Below, in pieces: positions 3,337 to 44,642 of a stretch of 50,066 bases of DNA. Each line of letters starts with the position of its first letter. Within the stretch, counting starts at the first letter, position 1. The notes under the pieces were generated by a model that saw only the letters and a list, made by a program, of their open reading frames with translations, was not told the origin of the DNA and made no database searches. Made by a program: the position numbers and the translations under genes. The DNA is from Escherichia phage EF3-1, in sequence record PQ571291; one strand, 5' to 3'.

Positions 3337-3653
3337 AAAAGGCGGTCTATCTGTTATATCAGAAGCCGCCAACAGAGGAACAATTGCGATCGGTTGGTTT
3401 AAGTCTTTCCGACTATGAAGACGAGGAACCTGAAACGATAATTGGCGACGCTGAAATGGTGAAGGCTTGGAATGTTTTTACATCAATGCTCACTCAGTGG
3501 AGAAGTTCAGGCGCTGGCGCTTACGGTCTTGATTATAATGTTTTGCCTATGTTGTTTAAAATCTATAAAATAGAGGATGAAGAACTGGCATTGCAGGACG
3601 TTAGGATCATGGAAGCGAAAGCGCTCGAAATGATTGCTAAGCAGAATAACTAA
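3019..3653 (+). CDS. tail assembly chaperone GT-like fusion made by programmed -1 frameshift
   Basis: -1 frame is open from 3327 to 3653 with no stop; slippery A_AAA_AAC at 3327-3333 just before the G stop. Confidence 0.65.
3327..3333 (+). other. -1 ribosomal frameshift slippery heptamer A_AAA_AAC
   Basis: X_XXY_YYZ pattern in zero frame (gca|aaa|aac|taa); possible stimulatory stem GGCGG(3341-3345)/CCGCC(3366-3370) downstream. Confidence 0.65.
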
Positions 3654-3676
3654 GCCGCCGTTTGGCGGTTTTTTTG
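3653..3676 (+). terminator. rho-independent terminator between chaperone and tape measure genes
   Basis: AGCCGCC-GTTT-GGCGGTT hairpin followed by T7. Confidence 0.6.
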
Positions 3677-3692
3677 TATATAAGGGGGTTAT

Positions 3693-6566
3693 ATGGTTGA
3701 TAAGGTAGCAGGTCTATCGCTTGACGTTGATGTGTCGACAGTGCAGCGCGCCGTCAAGTCATTGAAAGAGTTTTCAAAAGCTAACGACCAAGCCGCTGAC
3801 TCTATGGGGTCTTTAATCAATGAGGCTGAGGTTGCAAAACAGAAGGCTAAAGAACACGCTGAGCAACTTAAGCGCCAGCGAAAAGAGTACGAGGCTGTAG
3901 AAAAGGCAATCGATCCTACAGTATCAAAAATGGAAAGGTTAAAGATTGCATCTCAGCAGCTTGATAAACTCTGGCAAAAGGGCGTTGTTCCAGATGAAAC
4001 ATTTTTCCGGTTGGGTGAAATGCTGGACATGCAAAATGCAAAACTTGCTCGCAGCCGAGCTATGCTTACTGAAGAGGGTCAGGCAGCATTGCAGGAAGCG
4101 AAAGCAAAAGAGCAGGCAGCAGCGAAAAACAAAGCGTTCATGGATTCCCTGAACAGTCAGGTTAACGCCATTGGCAAAACTCACGCAGAGTTAATGGAAC
4201 TGAAAGCGGCTCAGCTTGGACTATCAAATGAAGCAGCGCCCCTGATCGCAAAACTGAAAGAACAGGGTCGAGCCATGAATGCCGCAGGTATTAGCGCAGG
4301 GCAATATAGGCAGGCAATGCGAATGCTTCCTGCACAGATTACCGACGTCGTTACATCTCTTGCGTCCGGTATGCCAGTTTGGATGGTTGCCATCCAGCAA
4401 GGCGGTCAAATTAAGGACTCGTTCGGAGGGATCGGGAATACGTTTAAGGTATTGCTCAGCTATATTAATCCGGTCACAGTTGGCGTTGGTGTTCTTGTCG
4501 GCTCTTTAGGACTTCTTGCGAAAGCTGGTTATGACTCTTACAAGTCAATAACTGATATGCAGAAGGCTCTTGTTGAGACTGGAGGTTATGCAGGTGTCAC
4601 GGCTGAAGACCTTGATTCTGTTGCTAAAAAGGTGGCTCAGACGAGCAACTCAACAATTTCAAGCATTCGTGAGATTGTTACTGAACTTGCCAGTACTGGT
4701 AAATATACGCGAGAGCAGATTCAGAACATCACAAAAGCTACCGCTGAGTGGTCGACAGCAACCGGAAAATCAGCAAGTAAAATCATCGCTGAGTTCGATA
4801 AAATCGCAAGCGATCCTGTAAAGGGTCTGGCTAAACTTAACGAGCAATACAACTTTTTAGAAAAAGGGCAACTGACATATATCGATACGCTAAGTCGTAC
4901 TAAGGGTGAAACGGAGGCAGTGTCTGAAGCAACGAAATTATTCGCCGAAGTTATGGAGGAGCGAATGAAGTCGATCGCAGACAATGCCACGCCTCTTGAA
5001 AAAATGTGGAACGATATTAAGCAGTGGGCCTCTGATGCGTGGGGGTGGGTTGGGGATCATACTCTCGGAGCATTAAACCTGATTATTGACGTAGTTCAGG
5101 GTACGGTAATTCAGGTAAAAATGATTCTTGCGAAGGGTGATGAGTACATCTCAAACTTTATCGCATCTGCAATTAAGGCTACGCAGTCGCTGCCCGGCAT
5201 GAGTGATTTCGGTGCTGATGTACTTAAGGAGCAGGAGAACATTGTAAAAAGTTCTCGCGACAACTACGATCAGTTAGCTTCAGAGCTTGATGCTATTAAC
5301 GCTCGCGTAGAAAAAGGCGAGATGGGATACGTTGAAGCGATGAAGCAGCGTCGAACTCTTGAAAAGCAGTACAGTGAGGAAACTAAGGAGGCAATAAGGA
5401 AAGAAGCAGAAGAGATCGAGAAGCGAAACCGAGAAAGAAATAAGCAGTCGAAAATTGTACGCTCACCGACAGAGCAATTCGACAAGGAGTTAATTTCACT
5501 CAAGGCTCAACTTAAGGTATTGCAAGAGCACAAGGAGATCGGGCAAAAACTATCAGCACAGAGAAAGGCTCTGTTTACTACTGAGGCTACGATCGCTGTT
5601 CTTCGAGAGGCTAGTTCTAAGCGTCAGTTATCTGCGGAAGAAAAAACACTACTTGCAAACCAGGAGAAAGTTTTAGAGCTTGCGAAACAGAAGGCTGAGA
5701 TTGGTGATCAGATTGTTAAGCAACAGCAGTTGAACGCTCTTACCGATAAATCACTGAAATTTGTCAATGATTTGACGGCAGCTACAGAACAGCTAAACGC
5801 GTCTCGCGGGATGAGCACCCGAGAAATGGAAAGACAAGCTGAGTTGGCTAAGATCACTACTGACTATATTAATGCAGGTGGCAGCGAAGGAGATGAAAAA
5901 CTCCAGAACATGATCAAGGCACAAAATGATTACTATGCTGCGGAAGATGCCAAGCGTGCTGACTGGTTGGCAGGTGCTGAAAGCGCATTTGCAGATTACG
6001 GCGACTCTGCAATGGATATGTATGGTAACGTATATGATATCGCGTCAAGTTCACTTAACGGAATGAGTGATATGATGACCCAATTCCTTACTACAGGTAA
6101 GGCAAACTTTGAGGACTTTGCGAAAAACATCATTAGCATGATTATCAAGATGATTGCTCAGATGGTAATATTCAATACGATCTCAGGAATGACAGGGGGT
6201 AAGACTTGGAGCTTTGCAGGTGGATTGACTTCCGGAGCTTCTGCGGCATCACAGGCAACTCCTACGCCTGCCGCCTCTGGTTTTAGGTCTTTATCTTCAG
6301 GTGTCGATGTTACATCGCTTGCCGCCGCTGCGGGTAGTGTTGCAACATCTGGATTTAACGCATCTAAATCAGCACCGAAGGCAGTAAACCAATCAGCAGG
6401 TGGAACGGTCGTTGACGTTAGGGGCATGGAGGTTAAAGTTGACAATGGTTCAGATCCGAGAGGAATTTCTCAGGGCGTAGAGATGATGTTCAAAAAAATG
6501 ATTCGCGAATCTTGTTCTCAGGGCGGTGAGGTTTACAATTACATTCAGGAAAAAACGGGAGGCTAA
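3693..6566 (+). CDS. tail tape measure protein (957 aa)
   Basis: Very long coiled-coil-rich ORF after G/GT chaperone; Gly/Ala/Ser-rich C-terminus. Confidence 0.9.
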
Positions 6567-6568
6567 TA

Positions 6569-42991: not shown

Positions 42992-43030
42992 CGTTACTGG
43001 CGCGCAAGCGCCCATGCAGGAGACTTAATT

Positions 43031-44599
43031 ATGATTCAATGGGAAGAACTCGACGCAACTCAGAAGTTAGCGATCAAGAAAATGAGCGAGGCCAACTTCG
43101 AAAAGATGATTCGGATCTGGTTCCAGCTTATGCAGGCTCAGCAGTTCCAGCCTAACTGGCATCACCTTTACCTCTGTCACGAAGTGGAGGAAATAATTGC
43201 AGGCCGACGCGGTAACACTATCTTTAACGTCACGCCCGGTTCCGGTAAAACAGAGGTATTCTCAATTCACCTTCCTGTGTACGCAATGCTCAAGTGTAAA
43301 AAGGTGCGAAACCTTAACGTGTCGTTTGCCGACAGCCTGGTTAAGCGCAACAGTAAGCGCGTCCGTGAGATTATCAGCAGTAACGAGTTCCAGGAGTTAT
43401 GGCCCTGCAAGTTCGGTACATCGAAAGATGAAGAGATGCAAGTCCTTAACGAAGATGGCAAGGTCTGGTTCGAGCTAATCTCCGCAGCAGCCGGAGGTCG
43501 AATCACAGGTTCGCGTGGTGGCTATATGACGCCGGGGTTCTCAGGGATGGTAATGCTCGACGACATAGACAAGCCTGATGATATGTTCTCAAAGGTTAAG
43601 CGTGAGCGTACTCACATGCTATTAAAGAACACCATACGATCCCGTCGTATGCACAACGAGACGCCGATTATCGCAATCCAGCAGCGACTGCACGCGCAGG
43701 ATTCAACATGGTTCATGATGAATGGCGGTATGGGTATTGAGTTTGATCAGATCTCGATTCCGGCACTAGTAACTGAGGAATACGGAAAGACGCTTCCTGA
43801 CTGGTTACAACCATACTTCGAGCGCGACGTTTTGTCGTCTGAGTATGTAGAATTGGATGGAGTTAAGCATTACTCATTCTGGCCCAGCAAGGAAAGCGTT
43901 CACGACCTGTTAGCTCTTCGAGAAGCGGACCAGTATACCTTTGACTCTCAGTATCAGCAGAAGCCTATCGCGCTTGGTGGCTCAGTGTTTAACTCTGAGT
44001 GGTGGACTTATTACGGCAGCAGCCTTGACGCTGACGAGCCAGATCCTGGTAAATATGATTACCGTTTCATTACCGCCGATACCGCTCAGAAGACAGGTGA
44101 ACTAAACGACTACACGGTGTTTTGCTTATGGGGTAAGAAAAACGATAAGGTTTACTTTATCGACGGCATTCGCGGAAAGTGGGAAGCGCCGGATATGGAG
44201 AAACAATTTACCGCCTTCGTGAATCAGGCATGGAGGCACAATAAATCAATGGGTGTGCTTCGCAAAATCTACGTGGAAGATAAGGCGAGCGGGACGGGCT
44301 TGATTCAGAACTTAAGGAAAAAGACTCCGATCTCAATCACACCATTGCAGCGTAACAAAGATAAAGTTACCCGAGCTATGGATGCTCAGCCAGTAATTAA
44401 GGCCGGGCGCGTGGTTCTTCCAGAAGAGCACCCTATGCTTGCGGAAATCATCGCAGAACATAGCGCCTTTACTTACGATGACACCCATCCGCATGATGAT
44501 ATCGTCGATAACTTCATGGATGCGGCGAACATCGAATTACTGACCATTGATGATCCTATCGAGAGAATGAAGCGACTCGCCGGGATGGTTAAGCGGTAA
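43031..44599 (+). CDS. terminase large subunit (522 aa)
   Basis: Walker A-like VTPGSGKTEV ATPase N-terminal half and acidic nuclease-type C-terminal half; SD AGGAGA. Confidence 0.9.
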   Translation: MIQWEELDATQKLAIKKMSEANFEKMIRIWFQLMQAQQFQPNWHHLYLCHEVEEIIAGRRGNTIFNVTPGSGKTEVFSIHLPVYAMLKCKKVRNLNVSFADSLVKRNSKRVREIISSNEFQELWPCKFGTSKDEEMQVLNEDGKVWFELISAAAGGRITGSRGGYMTPGFSGMVMLDDIDKPDDMFSKVKRERTHMLLKNTIRSRRMHNETPIIAIQQRLHAQDSTWFMMNGGMGIEFDQISIPALVTEEYGKTLPDWLQPYFERDVLSSEYVELDGVKHYSFWPSKESVHDLLALREADQYTFDSQYQQKPIALGGSVFNSEWWTYYGSSLDADEPDPGKYDYRFITADTAQKTGELNDYTVFCLWGKKNDKVYFIDGIRGKWEAPDMEKQFTAFVNQAWRHNKSMGVLRKIYVEDKASGTGLIQNLRKKTPISITPLQRNKDKVTRAMDAQPVIKAGRVVLPEEHPMLAEIIAEHSAFTYDDTHPHDDIVDNFMDAANIELLTIDDPIERMKRLAGMVKR

Positions 44600-44617
44600 T
44601 AAATGAGATATAATCAA

Positions 44618-44642
44618 GGCTGTCAATTGACGGCCTTTTTTA
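44618..44642 (+). terminator. rho-independent terminator between terminase and portal genes
   Basis: GGCTGTCA-AT-TGACGGCC hairpin (one G-U) followed by T7; TATAAT at 44609-44614 just upstream. Confidence 0.55.

Follow-up and report, generated by a model that had tools for sequence, protein, structure and literature searches.

How can the genes of a long, co-directional late block all be expressed when sequences resembling intrinsic transcription terminators stand between them? This question is posed by Escherichia phage EF3-1 (sequence record PQ571291), whose sequence we analyzed as one window of 50,066 nucleotides. An initial annotation had drawn attention to four hairpins with T-runs among the structural genes, namely between the tail assembly chaperone and the tape measure protein, between the terminase large subunit (terL) and the portal, between two decoration proteins, and in front of the major capsid protein, and had ascribed them either to graded partial termination that sets protein ratios or to dependence on an antiterminator. 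Our analysis points to another account: we consider it probable that the hairpins are genuine rho-independent terminators for the host RNA polymerase and that most of them are fused to sigma70-type promoters, dividing a 20-kb block into about ten short units.

Terminator-like hairpins in the structural block

The window holds a complete T1-like genome (Drexlerviridae, Tunavirus) of 49,925 bp and, in addition, an assembly overlap of 141 bp, positions 1-141 being exactly repeated at 49926-50066; this terminal duplication is the overlap of a circularly permuted genome. Since the genome is circular and was opened inside the major capsid gene (49212 to 246 over the join), the structural block runs from 42.4 kb through the end of the window and on to 12.6 kb. 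The span of 3653-44642 given in the initial annotation goes the wrong way round the circle, and all the sites lie in one block of about 20 kb on the plus strand, from the terminase small subunit gene (terS, ~42.45 kb) to the tail fibre gene (end 12641). On the head side the gene order is terS, terL, portal, morphogenesis protein, protease/scaffold, two decoration proteins and major capsid protein, and on the tail side it is gp31, head-tail connectors, tail tube, chaperone (frameshifted), tape measure, tip proteins and tail fibre. An early block of small genes (33.4-42.4 kb) has the same direction, and the terminator at 42391 is all that separates the two.

All four hairpins with T-runs were found, each 1-3 nt from the position in the initial annotation, in which the T-run had been counted in, and a consensus scan recovered them independently. 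The flanking gene pairs had been correctly named, the TATAAT noted upstream of the portal gene is present (Table 1), and the two decoration genes are true paralogs, as had been supposed (39% identity, E = 9e-31). The list was incomplete, however, as about eleven co-oriented sites occur in the structural block, and the description of the sites as functional-module boundaries is only partly apt, because several of them separate single genes (decoration 1, decoration 2, capsid and gp31). Essentially every gap of at least 39 nt in the block holds a hairpin site, with the exception of the gap between terS and terL; the other genes abut or overlap. At the four original sites 5-8 T lie directly 3' of the stem, the stem-end T counted, and the stems at these and seven other sites comprise 7-11 bp, with folding energies of -10.4 to -16.9 kcal/mol.

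Under a strict definition, a site had to have 7 or more perfectly paired bp in the stem, of which 4 or more were GC, a loop of 3-6 nt and at least 4 T in the next 5 positions. Thirteen such sites are present on the plus strand and three on the minus strand, and every plus-strand site is intergenic and co-oriented with the genes. The chance level in 100 dinucleotide shuffles was 0.6 ± 0.9 per strand, with a maximum of 4.

Table 1. Hairpins, predicted promoter elements and associated signals of the EF3-1 structural block (window coordinates), with the corresponding annotation in the T1 record AY216660.1.
Feature	Position	Strand	Details	T1 record
Pre-terS terminator	42391..42408	+	hairpin AACCCGC-ttcg-GCGGGTT, then TTTTTAT	terminator, 8322-8344
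Tandem -10-like elements, pre-terS	42419..42434	+	TAATAT 42421-42426; TAAAAT 42429-42434, overlapping the start of an ATAGCAC box	
terL to portal, promoter-like element	44586..44614	+	TGGTTA-17-TATAAT, poor -35; -10 at 44609-44614, 2 nt before stem	
Site 2, terL to portal terminator	44616..44641	+	stem 44616-44637, AAGGCTGTC-aatt-GACGGCCTT, then TTTTATT; 9 bp, -13.2 kcal/mol	present in sequence, unannotated
Decoration 1 to 2, promoter-like element	48279..48307	+	TTGCAT-17-TAATAT; -10 ends 1 nt before stem	
Site 3, decoration 1 to decoration 2 terminator	48308..48338	+	stem 48308-48333, then TTTTTAT; 10-11 bp, -16.9 kcal/mol	terminator, 14237-14269
Predicted capsid promoter	49133..49160	+	TTGACG-16-TGcTATTAT, cATAAAAA upstream; 10/12 matches, TG-extended	promoter, 15062-15089
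Site 4, pre-capsid terminator	49162..49190	+	hairpin 49162-49187 directly after capsid promoter -10, then TTTATT; 10 bp, -14.5 kcal/mol	terminator, 15095-15121
Capsid gene end, promoter-like element	224..252	+	TTGTCT-17-TATTAT, 9/12 matches; -10 ends 1 nt before stem	
Post-capsid terminator	253..280	+	hairpin and T-run	terminator, 16107-16137
gp31 to head-tail adaptor terminator	589..614	+	promoterless on both sides	terminator, 16445-16470
Tube to chaperone hairpin with overlapping predicted promoter	2916..2952	+	hairpin 2916-2935 after tail tube gene, poor T-run in this clade (TTATTCATTT); TTGCGC 2924-2929, 17 nt, TAAAAT 2947-2952	present in sequence, unannotated
-1 frameshift signal, tail assembly chaperone	3327..3370	+	A AAA AAC 3327-3333, 7-nt spacer, hairpin 3341-3370	joined frameshift product
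Site 1, chaperone to tape measure terminator	3652..3678	+	stem 3652-3671, AAGCCGCC-gttt-GGCGGTTT, then TTTTGT; 8 bp, -11.8 kcal/mol; chaperone stop codon overlaps stem base; gap 39 nt; no promoter	terminator, 19508-19527
Tip-gene junction, ATAGCAC box, hairpin and predicted promoter	6919..6973	+	hairpin 6936-6956 and T-run; TTGCGC 6945-6950, 17 nt, TAGAAT 6968-6973	terminator, 22793-22816
Pre-fibre hairpin, predicted promoter and ATAGCAC box	9116..9184	+	hairpin 9116-9134, then TTTTTT; TTGCGC 9124-9129, 17 nt, TATAAT 9147-9152	terminator, 24972-24994
Bidirectional terminator, tail fibre gene end	12647..12671	.	faces convergent minus-strand genes; block end	terminator, 28568-28594

Conservation and covariation of the hairpins

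Conservation was assessed in 63 IMG/VR loci, each surrounding a capsid homologue of 57-100% identity; junctions were placed by tblastn, and a junction was scored as positive when a hairpin of -8 kcal/mol or better was followed by a T-run. The terL-portal junction was positive in 49/49 relatives of groups A and B and in 0/9 of the distant group C, the junction of the two decoration genes in all 28 relatives having both genes (16 distinct hairpins), the decoration 2-capsid junction in 25/25, capsid-gp31 in 46/47, gp31-adaptor in 44/47, chaperone-tape measure in 55/57 and tail assembly-fibre in 51/52. The tube-chaperone hairpin was found in 52/57 relatives, and the terminator at 42391, which marks the border between the early small genes and the packaging genes, was conserved in all three divergence groups. 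The tip-gene hairpin at 6936 is more restricted, being present in 14/14 close relatives and in just 4/26 mid-distance ones. In the same search, six tight junctions yielded no hairpin in any relative examined. Although these sequences share descent and the best hairpin was chosen per region, the hairpin junctions still differ by a very wide margin from the tight junctions and from the shuffles, and each conserved junction is represented by 13-24 distinct hairpin sequences.

The pattern of substitutions indicates that pairing itself is maintained. At the pre-capsid hairpin, 95.5% of the alignment cells are paired and double compensatory changes occur in 5 of the 10 pairs, giving a covariation score of 0.445 compared to 0.247 ± 0.034 in shuffles (0/500), while slid registers reached at most 0.236. 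The hairpin at 3652 has 100% of its cells paired and two double-change pairs (0.262 versus 0.127; 0/500 shuffles), and the terL-portal hairpin, scored on variants of equal length only, has 92% paired and three double-change pairs (0.365 versus 0.196; 0/500 shuffles). At these hairpins, too, the score exceeded that of every slid register. The hairpin between the decoration genes has undergone many non-homologous replacements and cannot be aligned across lineages (MAFFT/RNAalifold), yet each version folds singly; because replacement between lineages puts the alignment out of register, this site was judged by per-sequence folding, which points to hairpin replacement with function retained. The capsid junction also varies in its T-run, since 11 of the 50 distinct contexts retain the hairpin next to a U-tract that is degenerate or missing, and in group C the hairpin and T-run lie upstream of the predicted promoter. 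As judged from these comparisons, the presence of genuine, selected terminator-like elements inside the structural block is supported.

Promoter-like elements overlap the hairpins in two registers

We stacked the junction sequences on the stem, scored -10-like hexamers at each position and searched for TTG at spacers of 10-25 nt. A conserved TTG-N16/17-TAnnnT pattern overlaps the hairpin at six junctions, which in EF3-1 correspond to sigma70-type -10 elements (A2, T6) with a TTG at 16-18 nt at 2924-2952, 6945-6973, 9124-9152, 48279-48307, 49133-49160 and 224-252, and a -10 alone is found at two more, terL-portal and pre-terS. From this conservation and its fixed geometry we infer that the hexamers are used as promoters, with start sites at the corresponding positions. 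The overlap takes one of two registers.

In register A (2916, 6936 and 9116), the loop of the hairpin together with its 3' arm supplies the -35 hexamer TTGCGC, and the T-run falls within the spacer. A -10-like hexamer follows the stem in 44/44 distinct contexts at the tube-chaperone junction, 15/15 at the junction of the first and second tip genes and 43/43 at the tail assembly-fibre junction, in the variants TAAAAT, TAATAT, TAGAAT, TATAAT and TACAAT. TTG stands at 17 nt in 36/44 (with another 7/44 at 16 nt), 12/15 and 34/43 of these contexts, respectively, and is close to zero at the remaining spacers within the range searched. The 17-nt spacer is kept despite stem-loop lengths of 16-27 nt, or 16-25 nt at the tube-chaperone junction, and stem-to--10 distances of 9-13 nt, and this compensated spacing argues that TTGCGC is selected as a -35. 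The pre-terS junction has the same geometry with a weaker -35 (TTCGGC in the loop, 17 nt, TAATAT) and a second -10 a few nt further downstream that is shared by the whole family; in relatives of every group, TATAAT, TAAAAT or TATACT occurs some 20 nt beyond the stem, and a clear -35 is absent.

In register B (44616, 48308, 49162 and 253), the -10 abuts the stem. The terL-portal hexamer ends at offset -2 in 36/43 distinct contexts and is present in 39/40, and no TTG at 16-18 nt is conserved among the distinct contexts at this junction. Between the decoration genes, where the relatives mostly have TAATAT or TAAAAT, the -35 lies within the last codons of decoration gene 1 and TTG is at 17 nt in 18/21 contexts. 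The predicted capsid promoter can be seen in 50/50 distinct contexts, including relatives with 57% identity, in the variants TTGACG or TTGCAC, a spacer of 16-17 nt, and TGcTATTAT or TATCAT; its -10 ends at -2/-1 in 14/22 contexts and TTG is at 16-17 nt in 21/21, while the automated -10/TTG test, applied to hairpin-positive contexts only, flagged 34/39. The T1 ortholog of this element is annotated as a promoter directly 5' of the pre-capsid terminator. At the capsid-gp31 junction the -10 ends at -2/-1 in 16/38 contexts (5-of-6 threshold) and TTG is at 17 nt in 32/37, but this TTG coincides with conserved Ile-Val codons of the capsid C-terminus, so that coding and promoter constraints are inseparable there.

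The same scoring revealed no conserved -10 or -35 on either side of the hairpins at 589 and 3652 across the relatives, and the 'wrong' side of every other hairpin gave no -10 or TTG peak, so that both sets served as internal negative controls. Two further candidates were discarded. The 8-mer TGTADWAT, considered as a late promoter motif, is not enriched genome-wide (12 occurrences versus 10.6 expected) and stands out only beside the hairpins, and the TTGACG in the loop at 44616 does not serve as a register A -35, as the sequence 17 nt downstream is GAAAGT, overlapping the portal start codon.

The ATAGCAC box and the search for an antiterminator

A 21-nt repeat of T1-like phages, ATAGCACnnnTTGnTAAAA, has been published, with its function given as unknown (PMC11447400). 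In EF3-1 about 26 copies of this ATAGCAC box occur on both strands, for example at 34982, 36040, 37327, 38709, 39229, 40602, 25473 and 23485, and on the minus strand at 31252, 31669 and 29621. In 19 of the 26, a -10-like hexamer (most commonly TATAGT) stands exactly 20 nt beyond the box, with ATCGA or a similar start with A 6 nt further on; at no other single offset are there more than 4. The box contains a near-palindrome, TAGCA-N5-TGCTA, centred at about -41.5, the position of a class II activator. We had considered the box together with a covarying hairpin as a nut-like (boxA/boxB) RNA, and dropped this since the spacing of box, -10 and ATCGA is promoter geometry. An inverted repeat brackets the -10 of box promoters (for example at 35008-35036, 36066-36092 and 37352-37378), with its 5' arm in the spacer and its 3' arm forming the discriminator; it covaries between copies (GGGGCA/TACCCC, GGGGTT/AACCCC, AAGGCCA/TGGCCTT and GGGGAAT/ATTCCCC) and has no T-run after it. 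Two distant loci on opposite strands, 22482-22501 (plus) and 31649-31630 (minus), carry the same 20-nt hairpin, TGCCGGAATGGAATCTGGCA, in each case behind an ATAGCAC box, and this pair looks like a duplicated promoter cassette.

Within the structural block, boxes are present in inverted orientation at 2980-2997 and 49140-49157 and in forward orientation at 6919-6936, 9167-9184 and 42433-42450. The chaperone, fibre and terS units each have one in their leader, another abuts the 6936 hairpin, and another occupies the spacer and -10 region of the predicted capsid promoter, whose spacer is the inverted box; in mid-distance relatives a box is also found just upstream of the terL-portal -10, in place of a TTG. 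Such non-standard positions would be better suited to a repressor or roadblock than to an activator, and thus suggest a dual-function regulator.

A search of 30 non-structural proteins in PHROGs, with the ten larger early ones also compared with Pfam, identified no Q, N or other antitermination family, and an Rfam scan of the whole stretch gave no match, put-type RNAs included. The sole annotated match of interest was a DUF3850/ASCH-like 'RNA-binding' protein (37409-37696). As most of the early proteins are orphans, the negative family search lowers the probability of the antiterminator hypothesis only in part.

Further observations on the structural block

The packaging and head region is 96.8% identical to that of Shigella phage vB_SsoS-ISF002 and 90-97% identical to those of many Tunavirus phages. 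Gene identities were taken from the annotated relatives FCWL1 and T1 (AY216660.1) together with the open reading frame (ORF) list; the FCWL1 record, in which all genes are on one strand, was used solely for product names within the structural block. Several start codons deserve comment. The longest terS ORF starts at 42443 and overlaps an ATAGCAC box, and the true start is at ~42467 according to the T1 annotation and the position of the Shine-Dalgarno sequence; the longest ORF of tip protein 2 (6945/6972) overlaps the predicted -10, the T1 annotation and Shine-Dalgarno sequence placing the true start at ~7002; and the portal start in FCWL1 (locus 10456) reads across the terminator and has probably been placed too far upstream.

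The hairpins at 6936-6956 and 9116-9134 share with the pre-terS hairpins of relatives (L015, L020 and L026, for example) a near-identical core, CCCGCCTTGCGCGGG, which is thus seen at three junctions; either a terminator-promoter cassette has spread within the genome, or the hairpins have converged on TTGCGC. At 12647-12666 and 16655-16675, between convergent genes, stand two symmetrical hairpins that have a T-run on each strand, as expected of bidirectional terminators. The element at 3327-3370, which is terminator-like on the minus strand in permissive scans, was rejected as a terminator and represents the -1 frameshift signal of the chaperone gene.

Proposed separate transcription units and alternative explanations

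If the hairpins are fused to promoters as proposed, the two registers would operate differently. In register A (2916, 6936, 9116 and probably 42391), an incoming polymerase would terminate and a new transcript would begin about 25 nt downstream. In register B, where only 1-2 nt lie from the end of the -10 to the stem, the start would fall inside the 5' arm, so that transcripts born upstream would carry the whole hairpin and terminate, while those from the local promoter would lack the base of the stem beside the U-tract and pass through. Intrinsic termination requires a hairpin whose pairing extends as far as the U-tract. If transcription began at +7 after the -10, the hairpins left at 44616, 48308, 49162 and 253 would amount to -2.2, -4.9, -5.3 and 0.0 kcal/mol, compared to -13.2, -16.9, -14.5 and -13.3 kcal/mol for the full stems, and 4-6 bases before the U-tract would be unpaired, from which escape from termination would be predicted. 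The sites at 3652 and 589 are different, since the genes behind promoterless terminators would be expressed only by read-through, that is, by partial termination; this is how the connector and tube genes behind 589 and the tape measure and tip genes behind 3652 would be reached from upstream. At 3652 this would create a dosage step from the abundant tube and chaperone to the rare tape measure and tip proteins, and a step-down before the tape measure gene, whose product is present in few copies per virion compared to hundreds of tube subunits, makes biological sense. Overall, the block would be a chain of short units and not one lambda-like operon.

Several points weigh against this interpretation. 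A start at +5 instead of +7 leaves a hairpin of 6-7 bp (-8.2 to -11.9 kcal/mol) at three of the register B sites, in which case transcripts from the local promoters would partly terminate. The -35 hexamers are weak (3/6 matches for TTGCGC and TTGCAT) and the terL-portal -10 has no TTG; the TTGs at 224-229 and 48279-48284 lie in coding sequence, where the protein may explain their conservation, and TTGCGC could have been kept for the sake of the hairpin or by cassette history, given the recurrence of the shared core at several junctions. The loss of the U-tract from capsid contexts that keep the hairpin hints at a second role of the latter. What stays constant at this junction is a promoter with a hairpin beside it, and this hairpin may act beyond termination. 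Plain sigma70 promoters alone leave the late timing unexplained. Our literature search found no transcript data for T1-like phages, and a 2024 reannotation of phage TLS, using stricter promoter criteria, could not confirm separate late transcription modules (PMC11447400).

Among the alternatives, the one closest to the initial annotation is that a single long late transcript from upstream of terS passes a series of leaky terminators, so that stepwise falling mRNA levels set the protein ratios. The need for read-through at the promoterless sites 3652 and 589 supports it at those two places, the former of which lies between genes for high-copy proteins (tube and chaperone) and genes for low-copy ones (tape measure and tip), and stepwise read-through at leaky internal terminators is documented in Pseudomonas phage LUZ7, in a report that cites T7 for the same balancing (PMC9163698). 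As a general account, however, we regard it as unlikely: the capsid protein, the highest-copy product, is encoded behind three terminators (44616, 48308 and 49162), where steady attenuation of one transcript would leave it less mRNA than any other head gene, which argues against pure graded attenuation, and has its own strongly conserved predicted promoter; the abundant capsid and decoration genes stand behind three or four terminators and the low-copy terminase before them, which is the opposite of the order expected; and promoter hexamers conserved at fixed spacing overlap the hairpins at seven or eight junctions and are found at none of the control junctions. The second suggestion of the initial annotation, read-through that depends on a factor similar to lambda Q, possibly one that binds the ATAGCAC box, with the terminators silencing the structural genes early in infection, would fit the separation of the co-directional early block by the 42391 terminator alone, the boxes in the terS, chaperone and fibre leaders and in the capsid promoter spacer, a position like that of the Q-binding element, and the immediate succession of capsid promoter, hairpin and T-run, which is formally like pR'-tR'; the orphan status of most early proteins also leaves room for it. 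We judge it slightly less likely again, and unsupported by the searches of 30 non-structural proteins in PHROGs, of ten of them in Pfam and of the window in Rfam, which found neither a known antiterminator family nor a put or nut RNA. Early silencing would need no more than one or two terminators, while about ten are conserved together with promoters, and a capsid hairpin that lacks its U-tract in some lineages and lies upstream of the promoter in group C does not fit an obligatory promoter-proximal terminator.

It is also conceivable that 3' stem-loops protect the upstream mRNAs from exonucleases, or 5' stem-loops the downstream ones, with the T-runs being secondary. This would be in line with the retention of the capsid-promoter hairpin in the 11 of 50 contexts without an intact U-tract, with the conservation of the tube-chaperone hairpin despite its poor T-run in this clade, and with the stable 5'-terminal hairpin that a +5 start gives three register B transcripts. 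Elsewhere, however, the T-run is conserved with the stem in ~90-100% of relatives, and the stem size, GC content, loop and adjacent 5-8 T fit a canonical intrinsic terminator; the two roles are compatible, and as the main explanation we hold stabilization to be improbable. That the hairpins are functionless inverted repeats arising by chance in AT-rich intergenic DNA, for which only the general abundance of weak matches in permissive scans could be invoked, is refuted for practical purposes by the excess over expectation (13 versus 0.6), the strand bias of 13 to 3, and the positional conservation and covariation in the 63 loci. The account in which terminators are mostly paired with promoters thus appears to us the best of those considered.

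Relation to other phage and bacterial systems

The terminator layout is already known for T1-like phages and is annotated in T1 itself. Nine terminators in the T1 record map to 42391, 48308, 49162, 253, 589, 3652, 6936, 9116 and 12647 of the EF3-1 window; three of the four original sites are among them, with the terL-portal site as the exception, and only one promoter is annotated in the structural block of T1. The two phages belong to the same genus and have orthologous genes and junctions, and what differs is that the terL-portal and tube-chaperone hairpins are unannotated in T1. According to a passage in PMC11447400 that summarises the work of Roberts, Martin and Kropinski (2004), the T1 late region consists of 'transcriptons', terminator-flanked modules containing RpoD promoters. 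As candidates for a host-type promoter per unit, conserved TTG-N16/17-TAnnnT elements are seen here at six junctions, with a -10 only at two more and neither at 589 and 3652. For TLS, 21 intergenic terminators are listed (PMC11447400), and other genome papers on T1-like phages give 18-21. A statement of two fixed overlap registers or of their conservation throughout the family was not found in the literature searched, which did not extend to the 2004 T1 paper, and the registers are a comparative inference of the present analysis.

Phage T7, which employs its own polymerase, and LUZ7 resemble EF3-1 in having intrinsic terminators in co-directional structural blocks, one of them (T-phi in T7) right after the major capsid gene, as at 253 here, and in the need for read-through at some sites (3652 and 589 here). 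The difference is that most of the EF3-1 terminators are paired with predicted promoters and that the capsid gene lies behind several terminators and not before them. In lambda, the pR' promoter is followed by the tR' terminator, which is overcome by Q antitermination, and the Q-binding element is situated between the -35 and -10. EF3-1 likewise has a host-polymerase promoter, as predicted, close before an intrinsic terminator and ahead of a long structural block, and a conserved DNA box between the -35 and -10 of that promoter, but no Q homologue was found in it, there are many internal terminators and promoters instead of one, and the box has about 26 copies, the majority of which are centred near -41.5 of promoters other than this one.

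The closest parallel in bacteria is the concatenation of operons in Salmonella and other Enterobacteriaceae, where the terminator overlaps the -35 or -10 of the next unit (tufB-secE-rpoBC, as well as S10-spc-alpha) and which has been experimentally characterised (PMC6735719). The two share the terminator-promoter overlap, which here places TTGCGC in the loop and 3' arm (2916, 6936 and 9116) or the -10 against the stem (44616, 48308, 49162 and 253), conservation over long distances, almost no space for neutral insertions, and a possible coupling of neighbouring units. The bacterial case concerns four junctions on a chromosome, with coupling by promoter occlusion that was tested experimentally (PMC6735719), whereas in the phage seven or eight such junctions in two registers are predicted within 20 kb. 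Furthermore, RNA polymerase released at a terminator can slide along the DNA and re-initiate at a promoter tens of bp away (bioRxiv 10.1101/2023.02.10.528045 and references therein); by mechanistic analogy, the register A cassettes would be ideally spaced for sliding and re-initiation.

Implications for T1-like phages

The finding in its original form rediscovers a documented property of T1-like phages, and the T1 annotation carries over to this genome, with two unannotated sites, terL-portal and tube-chaperone, now added. The conserved overlap of terminators and promoters suggests that the late regions of T1-like phages are probably made of separate transcription units, which bears on the small question, left undecided by the 2024 TLS reannotation, of whether separate late units exist. 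The overlap geometry also predicts start sites within a few nucleotides, a modest and testable refinement. More tentatively, and with less than even confidence, we propose that bifunctional stop-restart cassettes occur throughout the Drexlerviridae in two geometries, with their own transcripts being immune, and that a single box-binding factor might activate the promoters at which the box is centred near -41.5 and gate the late ones, thereby acting as a temporal switch. If the arrangement is as proposed, the cassettes, 40-60 nt in length, would provide small natural insulators for use in E. coli, and the late region of these phages would be a counterpart to the terminator-promoter concatenation of bacterial ribosomal-protein operons.

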